NCBI GenBank assembly: GCA_023254095.1
Contig: JALNLM010000002.1
Span: 19,538 to 83,537, forward strand
From: Candidatus Geocrenenecus huangii
GTDB lineage: Archaea; Thermoproteota; Nitrososphaeria_A; Caldarchaeales; Wolframiiraptoraceae
Direction of reading: 5' to 3'
DNA: 64,000 nt
Each line of letters starts with the position of its first letter. Within the stretch, counting starts at the first letter, position 1. The notes under the pieces are model-generated. The model worked only from the letters and a program-made list of their open reading frames with translations. It was not told where the DNA came from and did not search any database. Below, piece after piece: positions 4,845 to 62,289 of the stretch. The position numbers and the translations under genes were made by a program.

Positions 4845-4978
4845 CGCCGGGGGTGGGATTTGAACCCACGAGCCCCGTTTCCCCAATAATTAATGGGGCA
4901 TCGGCTAACTCTTCTCAGTCTGACCATGCTTATTATTGATCTCGAGGCCGACCCTCTACCTGGCTAAGGTACCCCGGC
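4845..4978 (-). tRNA. tRNA-Ser (anticodon CGA) with two introns: about 34 nt in the anticodon loop and a probable 14-nt mini-intron in the variable arm
   Basis: Read by hand on the minus strand: acceptor GCCGGGG/CCCCGGC with discriminator G; D-arm; anticodon stem UCGGC/GCCGA with loop CUCGAG|A; T-arm GUGGG-UUCAAAU-CCCAC. The gene is 134 nt against about 86 nt expected for mature tRNA-Ser. Removing AUCAAUAAUAAGCAUGGUCAGACUGAGAAGAGUU at position 37/38 and AUUAAUUAUUGGGG from the variable arm leaves a canonical Ser variable arm, UGCCCCAAACGGGGCUC. Confidence 0.7.
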
Positions 4979-48094: not shown

Positions 48095-48216
48095 TAGCCC
48101 GGGCCGGATTCGAACCGGCGTCCCCGGGGGTCCCCTCATATAGATTTGATCCAGAGCCCGGGATCCCTGGCCCATACTCATCCGACCAGCATGTTTGGCC
48201 GCTAGACGACCGGGCT
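48095..48216 (-). tRNA. tRNA-Gln (anticodon CUG) with two introns: about 28 nt in the D-loop and about 21 nt at/next to anticodon-loop position 37/38
   Basis: Minus-strand read: acceptor AGCCCGG/CCGGGCU with discriminator A; D-stem GUCU...GGAU; anticodon stem CCGGG/CCCGG with loop CUCUGGA; T-arm GCCGG-UUCGAAU-CCGGC. The gene is 122 nt against about 73 nt mature. The extra sequence sits as one block in the D-loop and one after the anticodon loop. Confidence 0.7.
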
Positions 48217-48467
48217 TTCGATAATATAGATTGAATAGCGGTTCTTAAATCTATCCTTCAGTCCGACCTACTAATCATCCTGATGGACGTTCCTCATCTA
48301 AACTTATCTATAGGGGATTTTCGATATTATATGATCTTGTTTCATGTTCTGATTTTTTCCAGGCCTTGCTAAGGATATTTTATTCAACTTCTGGTATGTC
48401 TCTTCTACCTTTATGGAAAACTTTTTATGAATGGTCTACTTAACATATTTACAAGGAGGGGTTATCG

Positions 48468-52374: not shown

Positions 52375-53380
52375 GCATAATTCTTCCGAAATGCTTTCTC
52401 TCTCTAATCATCCTATGAGCTTCTTCAACCTCTTCTAATGGGAAGACTTTTGTAACCGGATTAACTTTCCCAGTTCTATGAAGTTCTAATGCTTCAGCCA
52501 GTTCTTTACGAGTACAAGAAAGCGATCCATGCAGGCTTACTTCTTTTAAGATGAAGTGACCTAGGGCTAGCGGGATAGGCTCCGGCTTAATGTTTCCTAC
52601 CTGAATTATTCTCCCACCCCATCTAACAGACCTCAAGCTCTCAATTATTGTTAACCCAACGCACTCCAAAACCATATCTACCCCCATTCCACCAGTAATC
52701 TTCTTCACTTCTTCTGAGTATGCTCCATCCCTTGAAACAATTACGTGGTCTGCTCCTATTTTGTATAAATTATCAACAAACTCTACTCTACCCGTAACCG
52801 CTACTACTTCTGCTCCATAGCTCTTAGCGACTTGGATAGCGTGTACTCCTACACCTCCAGTTGCACCCGTTATCAATACTTTTTCATCCTCCTTTAGTCC
52901 ACCCCTACTCTCTAGAGCATGTATCAGCATAGCTGTTACACATGCAGATATGGCTACGGCCTCTGATGATACGTCTTCGGGGGCTTTCACCAGGCTTCGA
53001 AAGTTAGTTTTGAGATACTCTGCATAAGAACCGTGGATATCTTCTCCGAACCATAACCTTCTTCTACAGATGTTTTCTTCCCCTCTTCTACATTCGGGGC
53101 ATTGACCACACGGTATATAGGTCAAGCTTGCGACTCTATCACCTTTCTTAAATTCACTTACCTCTTCTCCGACATCTACGACTCTTCCACATACTTCGTG
53201 GCCCAGTATTATCGGCAATCTCGTCTTCGGAAAGTATCCATCAACTGTCAGTATATCTCTATAGCAAACCCCGGTCATCTCCATCTTTAATAGAACTTCA
53301 CCTTTTCCTAAGGCTTCTATATCCTCTACCTCTTCTAATCTTAAGGGAGTCTTGAACCCTCTCAGTACGACTGCTTTCAC
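52364..53380 (-). CDS. Zinc-dependent alcohol dehydrogenase (medium-chain dehydrogenase/reductase family)
   Basis: 338 aa. GHEVCGRVVDVGEEV is the catalytic Zn site, CGQCPECRRGEENIC the structural Zn Cys4 site, and VLITGATGGVGVHAIQVAK the Rossmann motif. Confidence 0.85.
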   Translation of the reverse strand: MKAVVLRGFKTPLRLEEVEDIEALGKGEVLLKMEMTGVCYRDILTVDGYFPKTRLPIILGHEVCGRVVDVGEEVSEFKKGDRVASLTYIPCGQCPECRRGEENICRRRLWFGEDIHGSYAEYLKTNFRSLVKAPEDVSSEAVAISACVTAMLIHALESRGGLKEDEKVLITGATGGVGVHAIQVAKSYGAEVVAVTGRVEFVDNLYKIGADHVIVSRDGAYSEEVKKITGGMGVDMVLECVGLTIIESLRSVRWGGRIIQVGNIKPEPIPLALGHFILKEVSLHGSLSCTRKELAEALELHRTGKVNPVTKVFPLEEVEEAHRMIRERKHFGRIMLKP

Positions 53381-62165: not shown

Positions 62166-62289
62166 TAGCCCGGGCCGGATTCGAACCGGCGTCCCCGGGT
62201 ATCCCCTCATAGCGGCCAATGATCCAAAGCCCGGGATCCATAACCCATACTCATCCGACCAGCATGTTTGGCCGCTAGACGACCGGGCT
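62166..62289 (-). tRNA. tRNA-Gln (anticodon UUG) with two introns: D-loop intron near-identical to that of the CUG copy, and a 23-nt anticodon-loop intron
   Basis: The acceptor, D-stem, T-arm and D-loop intron match the 48095-48216 gene. The anticodon loop reads CUUUGGA, giving UUG. The second intron, AUCAUUGGCCGCUAUGAGGGGAU, differs from the CUG copy. The gene is 124 nt. Confidence 0.7.

Follow-up and report, generated by a model that had tools for sequence, protein, structure and literature searches.

Does the minus-strand segment 48095..48216 of the window (the whole 64,000-nucleotide stretch of Candidatus Geocrenenecus huangii DNA that was analysed) encode a working tRNA, and, if so, where would its precursor be cut? 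The first-pass annotation read these 122 nt as a gene for tRNA-Gln(CUG) containing two introns, of which one is at a non-canonical site in the D-loop, and this reading is upheld by ARAGORN on the spliced sequence, by orthologues and by bulge-helix-bulge (BHB) motifs. We consider it highly probable that 48095-48216(-) is a functional tRNA-Gln(CUG) gene, giving rise to a precursor of about 122 nt from which two protein-spliced, BHB-type introns are removed. The gene, its exon/intron boundaries, the BHB geometry, the conservation and the covariation are established here.

Structure of the gene

The gene is read on the minus strand from 48216 down to 48095, gene nucleotide n being window position 48217-n. 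Read directly from the gene sequence, the acceptor stem has 7 bp (AGCCCGG/CCGGGCT) and is followed by discriminator A; the T-arm is GCCGG-TTCGAAT-CCGGC, the anticodon-loop segment is CTCTGG and the CCA is not encoded. Exon 1 (48195..48216, minus strand, nt 1-22) comprises the acceptor 5' strand, U8, the D-stem 5' strand GTCT and the entire D-loop, AGCGGCCAA, the last base of which, A21, is fixed by intron-less orthologues. Exon 2 (48151..48166, minus strand, nt 51-66) contributes the D-stem 3' strand GGAT, C26, the anticodon-stem 5' strand CCGGG and loop residues C32, U33, C34, U35, G36 and G37; the anticodon CUG, assigned by ARAGORN on the spliced sequence, occupies nt 63-65 (48152..48154, minus strand; cag on the plus strand). 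Exon 3 (48095..48129, minus strand, nt 88-122) starts with C38 and continues with the anticodon-stem 3' strand CCCGG, a 4-nt variable loop GGAC, the T-arm, the acceptor 3' strand and discriminator A73.

With both insertions taken out, 73 nt are left, which fold into a canonical cloverleaf and are called tRNA-Gln(ctg) by ARAGORN. This agrees with the 73-nt mature species expected in the first-pass annotation, here as a predicted spliced sequence, in which the three exons are joined as AGCCCGGUCGUCUAGCGGCCAA-GGAUCCCGGGCUCUGG-CCCCGGGGACGCCGGUUCGAAUCCGGCCCGGGCUA. When the D-loop insertion alone is taken out, ARAGORN itself calls a 21-nt intron, nt 67-87, at the canonical position 37/38. Beyond the cloverleaf and the anticodon CUG, the molecule has U33, G18 and G19, the T-loop TTCGAAT, A1-U72 and A73; an A1-U72 first pair is typical for archaeal tRNA-Gln. 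By eye, a ATTTAAGAA box can be seen about 26-34 nt upstream of the gene, and a pyrimidine-rich stretch lies downstream.

The D-loop intron

To locate splice sites, BHB motifs were enumerated as a helix of 4 bp flanked by one 3-nt bulge on each strand, cut after the second bulge nucleotide. For the D-region, this enumeration has two solutions, an intron of nt 23-50 or an intron of nt 15-40. The first, intron 1 (48167..48194, minus strand, 28 nt, ACATGCTGGTCGGATGAGTATGGGCCAG), is also the one given by the orthologues. It is located at the border of the D-loop and the D-stem, between A21 and G22, a non-canonical site that corresponds to 21/22 in Sprinzl numbering and to gene nt 22/23. In the enumerated motif, the central helix consists of 4 bp between nt 17-20 and nt 45-48; its 5' strand (48197..48200, minus strand) is the exonic GGCC formed by G18, G19, C20 and C20a, and its 3' strand (48169..48172, minus strand) is the intronic GGCC. 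The rest of the intron is largely taken up by an inner hairpin (48173..48193, minus strand), with a stem of nt 24-29 (CATGCT) and nt 39-44 (AGTATG) forming 6 bp, including one G-U, and a loop, GGTCGGATG, containing a clade-conserved GGYCRGA.

The 5' bulge, nt 21-23 (AA↓A, the arrow marking the junction), is strict. The 3' bulge, nt 49-51 (AG↓G), has the strict 3-nt form when it is closed by the lone pair C16-G52; if the D-stem is kept, it turns into a 3 × 2 internal loop, which is more stable (-47.7 versus -42.6 kcal/mol at 37 °C). The motif thus has the 4-bp central helix and can form both 3-nt bulges, but belongs to the relaxed class because its outer helix is weak, being either C16-G52 alone or the 3 × 2 internal loop. 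In the unconstrained minimum free energy (MFE) fold, at 37 as well as at 75 °C, the central helix, the 5' bulge and the inner hairpin form and the D-stem is intact. The folding energy of the precursor is not unusual compared with shuffled sequences (z = -0.55). Excision of nt 23-50 is predicted to leave GGCCAA↓GGAT, identical to the sequence of uninterrupted homologues (L031, L045, L082 and others).

The anticodon intron

Intron 2 (48130..48150, minus strand, nt 67-87, 21 nt, ATCAAATCTATATGAGGGGAC) was found both by the ARAGORN intron call and by BHB enumeration. It occupies the canonical position 37/38, with position 37 (nt 66) as the last base of exon 2 and nt 88 as the first of exon 3. Its motif is a strict hBHBh', with a central helix between nt 61-64 (CUCU) and nt 82-85 (GGGG), bulges at nt 65-67 (GG↓A) and nt 86-88 (AC↓C), a 3-bp inner helix (nt 68-70 with nt 79-81) and, as outer helix, the anticodon stem, counted as 7 bp by the enumerator. 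Bases 34 and 35 lie inside the central helix, as is known for the canonical site, where the first two anticodon bases sit in the 4-bp central helix (PMC4090602). The MFE fold favours a slightly shifted pairing in the anticodon region over the canonical central helix. By the BHB cleavage rule, position 38 of the mature tRNA is predicted to be C, not A. Self-splicing by a group I or group II intron was considered and rejected, the insertions being 28 and 21 nt long, compared with about 200 nt or more for a ribozyme core, and showing no Rfam intron match.

Orthologues and covariation

An exon-anchored pattern scan that tolerated zero to two insertions, run on species-representative genomes, identified at least 118 tRNA-Gln genes; the counts below are over 119 genes, the 118 matches listed plus the window gene. 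An exon match in at least 118 genes of other species is, as a sequence comparison, far beyond what chance would be expected to produce. Of the matches listed, 35 are entirely intron-less and 41 are without a D-loop insertion; those without the D-loop intron read GTCT AGYGGYCAA GGAT among the matches listed. The D-loop junction is fixed at A21/G22 because intron-less copies read AGCGGCCAA↓GGAT. At exactly 21/22, 76 of the 119 genes (among the matches listed) carry an insertion, which is 14-30 nt long and occurs in 70 distinct versions, and A21 is invariant in all D-loop-intron genes parsed among those matches. The orthologues empirically confirm the cleavage register of the D-loop, in that CAA↓GGAT would arise solely from cuts after the second bulge nucleotide.

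The central helix of the D-loop intron keeps 4/4 pairs in 69 of the 70 distinct introns among the matches listed. Pair C19-G46 is replaced by U-A in 14 sequences and by U-G in 4 (among the matches listed); more generally, exon GGTC is accompanied by intron GACC, GACT or GATC, and exon GGCC by GGCC, GGCT, GGTC or GGTT. In a fixed-register alignment, 91.3% of the cells are paired, versus 79.1% in shuffles, and pairing falls to 46-68% when the partner is moved by one column; pairs of the inner helix covary as well in the orthologue alignment. For the anticodon intron, all 4 central pairs are present in 60 of 63 distinct versions among the matches listed, with 97.2% of the cells paired. Position 34 and its partner base in this intron are C-G in 35, U-A in 10 and U-G in 8 cases (among the matches listed), a covariation that agrees with the first two anticodon bases being in the central helix (PMC4090602). 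For both introns, shifting the register by 1 to 3 columns in either direction gives a sharply poorer result, and the percentage of paired cells, the number of double changes and the covariation score are all higher than in any of 500 shuffles. In both, compensatory changes keep the helices while intron sequence and length drift.

The closest comparison is with Ca. Geocrenenecus arthurdayi (L103), in which the exons are 100% identical to those of the window gene and both introns are different, the D-loop intron being 24 versus 28 nt long and the anticodon intron 19 versus 21 nt. Constant exons combined with drifting introns that keep their BHB motifs are the signature to be expected of real, spliced introns. 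Within the species, ten strain MAGs (L001-L010) keep the gene with a single polymorphism, C/T at nt 19 (window 48198, position 20): C is present in the window, L007 and L010, T in the eight other Ca. G. huangii MAGs, and the central BHB pair is preserved as G-C or G-U. In two Nitrososphaerales-type MAGs (L015 and L039), tRNA-Gln(CUG) has no D-loop intron and carries another insertion, on the 5' side of the anticodon stem, which is another non-canonical site in this tRNA; the central helix of their canonical intron has only 3/4 pairs.

Alternative readings

The first-pass annotation had the lengths of both insertions right, 28 and 21 nt, and placed them slightly off. It put the D-loop intron at nt 21-48 (48169-48196), 2 nt away from the 48167-48194 given by the BHB motif and the orthologues, and the second intron at nt 68-88 (48129-48149), 1 nt away from 48130-48150 at the canonical 37/38. 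Its boundaries would imply a mature D-loop AGCGGCCAG and an A at position 38. Such cuts also yield 73 nt that ARAGORN accepts as tRNA-Gln(ctg), and, owing to repeats at the junctions (GGCCA...GGCCA around intron 1, an A at either end of intron 2), several cuts are hard to tell apart. However, neither nt 21-48 nor any cut with the same product allows a 4-bp helix with 3-nt bulges when enumerated by hand, and none appears in the BHB enumeration. Its D-loop product would read ...GGCCAG↓GGAT, in conflict with ...GGCCAA↓GGAT of the intron-less orthologues and with the A21 that is invariant in the genes parsed, while the conserved register of intron 2 implies cleavage behind the second nucleotide of the bulge, that is, at 37/38 (orthologues; PMC4090602). 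We regard it as very unlikely that these boundaries are the correct ones. At both junctions as placed here, the BHB motifs on which the first-pass annotation had staked its call do form, with support from covariation in the orthologues. The exact junctions matter because they define the mature tRNA, including A21 and C38.

Standard gene finders were expected to miss or mis-call such a gene, and they do. In the whole 64-kb window, ARAGORN run without introns detects no tRNA. Rfam at the gathering score does not find the tRNA-Gln(CUG) gene, its single match in the window being another tRNA at 4845-4978, and in a permissive Rfam search of the whole window (E ≤ 5) the gene is again absent, with nothing returned besides tRNA-Ser. 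A permissive local Rfam scan at the gene gives a 21.6-bit partial match that is mis-registered and has the 5' acceptor strand mis-assigned; in intron mode, ARAGORN mis-calls the gene as tRNA-Leu(gag). That ARAGORN and Rfam miss it might point to a decaying pseudogene, a tRNA gene in which insertions have built up and from which no working tRNA is spliced. This is still less likely than the shifted boundaries: the exons are canonical and identical across species, with divergence confined to the introns, the BHB helices are maintained by compensatory changes, and 10 strain MAGs retain the gene. The same architecture also recurs in 33/33 Caldarchaeales-labelled genes among the matches listed and in the UUG isoacceptor of the window.

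Least probable of all is the second solution of the enumeration, a 26-nt intron at nt 15-40 (central helix nt 9-12/35-38, inner helix nt 16-21/29-34) that would leave a 75-nt tRNA with D-loop AUAUGGGCCAG; this motif, with an inner helix of 6 bp and an outer helix of 2 bp, exists because the intron-loop GGUC can pair with the exon GGCC, but it is in neither the MFE nor the centroid structure, needs a window-specific intron sequence for helix 9-12/35-38 that is missing in orthologues with other introns, would destroy the D-stem along with G15, which has C48 as its partner, and yields a product contradicted by all intron-less orthologues among the matches listed. The strain MAGs cannot separate the two candidate D-loop motifs, since their sole polymorphism fits both.

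Other tRNA genes and the intron-loop motif

The second glutamine tRNA gene of the window, tRNA-Gln(UUG) at 62166-62289 (minus strand, 124 nt), also has two introns and is likewise missed by ARAGORN and Rfam; ARAGORN -i mis-calls it as tRNA-His(atg). Its D-loop intron (62240-62267, 28 nt) has 3 differences from that of the CUG gene, including a central-helix 3' strand that reads GGTT compared with GGCC, and its canonical anticodon intron is at 62201-62223 (23 nt). Both glutamine tRNA genes of Ca. G. huangii are therefore invisible to ARAGORN and Rfam and mis-typed in ARAGORN intron mode, and a genome annotated with these two programs would appear to be without tRNA-Gln. A collection of independent Caldarchaeales introns made with ARAGORN -i consisted mostly of mis-parsed Gln genes.

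In each of the two Geocrenenecus species, the CUG and UUG paralogues (compared at 48167-48194 and 62240-62267 of the window, and in L103 and L122) have the same or nearly the same D-loop intron, and this intron differs between the two species. The two genes are 14 kb apart in the window, and the pattern suggests that their 5' halves have undergone gene conversion or concerted evolution.

The third tRNA gene, the Rfam-detected tRNA-Ser(CGA) at 4845-4978 (minus strand), has an anticodon intron at 37/38 (about 4907-4940, 34 nt), with a central helix of only 3/4 pairs, and a variable-arm intron (about 4879-4892, 14 nt) with a strict BHB motif; removal of the latter leaves a normal long arm of 5 bp with a 3-nt loop. 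All three tRNA genes in the 64-kb window (3/3) have two introns each.

The hairpin loop of the D-loop intron contains GGYCRGA, often as CTGGYCAGA, in 50 of the 70 distinct introns among the matches listed. The introns that bear it are Caldarchaeales-type and have a covarying stem beneath it; in Pyrobaculum and Thermoproteus the motif is absent. In the window, it is at 48179-48187 and also at 62252-62260 and about 4919-4925; in other genomes it is seen among loci L012-L127. It resembles GGYCAA in the exonic D-loop, and either of the two GGCC strands that make up the central helix can serve as its pairing partner. As the motif copies the exon GGYCAA that is sequestered by the central BHB helix, it could stand in for the D-loop and preserve the elbow contact with the T-loop in the precursor. 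Alternatively, it could time splicing by competing for pairing, or be an element recognised by a protein. We think it improbable that the D-loop intron is more than a passive insertion or, relatedly, that the 21/22 intron, instead of having been gained recently, goes back to an ancient insertion that Caldarchaeales and Thermoproteaceae have in common.

The heptamer GGYCRGA also occurs in the tRNA-Ser anticodon intron, and local alignment of this intron with the Gln D-loop intron (TGGTCRGA..TGAG) is not significant (297/5000 shuffles). A C/D-box-sRNA-like stretch at 48256-48301(-), 40-85 nt upstream of tRNA-Gln(CUG), reads AGAUGAGG ... GGAUGAUU ... CUGA and contains GGUCGGA, equal to the intron-loop heptamer; its match to Rfam sR34 (13.9 bits, E = 5.3) is at chance level. 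A weak C/D match, to sR52, was seen at 52383-52435(-) (21.9 bits, E = 2.9).

Proposed splicing mechanism

In the precursor, D-loop residues G18, G19, C20 and C20a would pair with the 3'-proximal GGCC of intron 1, forming a 4-bp helix flanked by bulges AA↓A and AG↓G, on which the 6-bp intron hairpin would stack. On the anticodon side, positions 32-35 (CUCU) would pair with the GGGG of intron 2 to form a textbook hBHBh', the bulges of which are GG↓A and AC↓C. In each bulge, the archaeal splicing endonuclease would then cut after the second nucleotide. An RNA ligase, probably of the RtcB type, would join the three exons into the 73-nt tRNA, to which the CCA would be added afterwards; ligation by RtcB and CCA addition after splicing belong to the general knowledge of tRNA processing. 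The enzymes and the splicing itself are assigned here by analogy with the literature, in which the endonuclease of this lineage is a heterotetrameric (αβ)2 enzyme tolerant of non-canonical sites. Because its outer helix is weak, intron 1 would belong to the class needing an (αβ)2-type enzyme.

Host and distribution

Geocrenenecus huangii is placed by GTDB in Nitrososphaeria, Caldarchaeales, NZ13-MGT (Wolframiiraptoraceae), and its MAGs, from Tengchong hot springs, have a GC content of about 40.7% (Buessecker et al. 2022, Supplementary Data 3). The base composition of the window agrees with this value, and the neighbouring S15 protein and the synteny are identical in contigs JALNKM, JALNKX, JALNJT, JALNJM and others. 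The suggestion that multiple introns mark a Thermoproteales-type genome does not hold for this host, which belongs to the Caldarchaeales (formerly Aigarchaeota), another intron-rich lineage.

With lineage groups assigned by record label, the orthologues form a clean comparative series for the keeping and losing of BHB introns. Both introns are present in all 33 genes from Caldarchaeales/Aigarchaeota (33/33), the D-loop intron only in the 12 genes from Thermoproteaceae (12/12), and neither in most genes from the ammonia-oxidiser relatives (18 of 22 from Nitrososphaerales, Nitrosopumilales and Thaumarchaeota), all counted among the matches listed. The Wolframiiraptoraceae thereby join the intron-rich archaea. 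For its group, the two-intron tRNA-Gln is real but ordinary, and the current view of archaeal tRNA splicing is unchanged.

Comparison with known systems

The nearest known system is that of Ca. Caldiarchaeum subterraneum, for which BHB motifs and a heterotetrameric splicing endonuclease have been described (Nunoura et al. 2011, PMC3082918); (αβ)2 EndA occurs in Aigarchaeota (PMC5829648; PMC3082918). Its tRNA-Gln CUG was listed as multi-intron in 2011 (PMC3082918) and was misprinted as tRNA-Glu[CUG] by Sugahara et al. 2012 (PMC3293823). This is the same isoacceptor as the Geocrenenecus gene, from the same order (Caldarchaeales, formerly Aigarchaeota), although from another family and genus than Geocrenenecus of the Wolframiiraptoraceae, and the anticodon-stem exon sequence differs. 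In MAGs labelled C. subterraneum (L023 and L038), the D-loop and 37/38 introns are at the sites of the Geocrenenecus gene; their sequences differ, as do their lengths (26 and 19 nt in L023 and 23 and 20 nt in L038, versus 28 and 21 nt).

The pre-tRNA-Glu(UUC) of Methanopyrus kandleri similarly combines a D-loop intron, at 20b/21 and with a relaxed HBh' motif, with a canonical one at 37/38 (Kaneta et al. 2018, PMC5829648), and its D-loop intron is efficiently removed in vitro by crenarchaeal (αβ)2 EndA (PMC5829648). It resembles the Geocrenenecus gene in having a D-loop and a canonical intron, with a D-loop motif of the relaxed class. However, it is another tRNA, from another phylum, and its insertion site is one position off, 20b/21 versus 21/22; unlike in M. 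kandleri, both 3-nt bulges can form in the D-loop motif of Geocrenenecus.

In Thermoproteaceae, the tRNA-Gln genes of Pyrobaculum and Thermoproteus have an intron at exactly the D-loop site of the Geocrenenecus gene, but are without the anticodon intron (12/12 among the matches listed) and without the GGYCRGA loop motif, both of which the Geocrenenecus gene has. Multiple-intron tRNAs of Thermoproteales were reportedly treated by Sugahara et al. in 2007 and 2008. Thermoproteales tRNA genes can have up to three BHB introns at non-canonical sites, and the known non-canonical sites include 20/21, 22/23 and 25/26 (reviewed in PMC4090602 and PMC4033280); multi-intron tRNAs can be detected by SPLITSX and tRNAscan-SE 2.0 (PMC8450103). 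D-loop introns, multi-intron tRNAs and the software to find them are already well documented, and the layout of this Caldarchaeales gene is itself already known.
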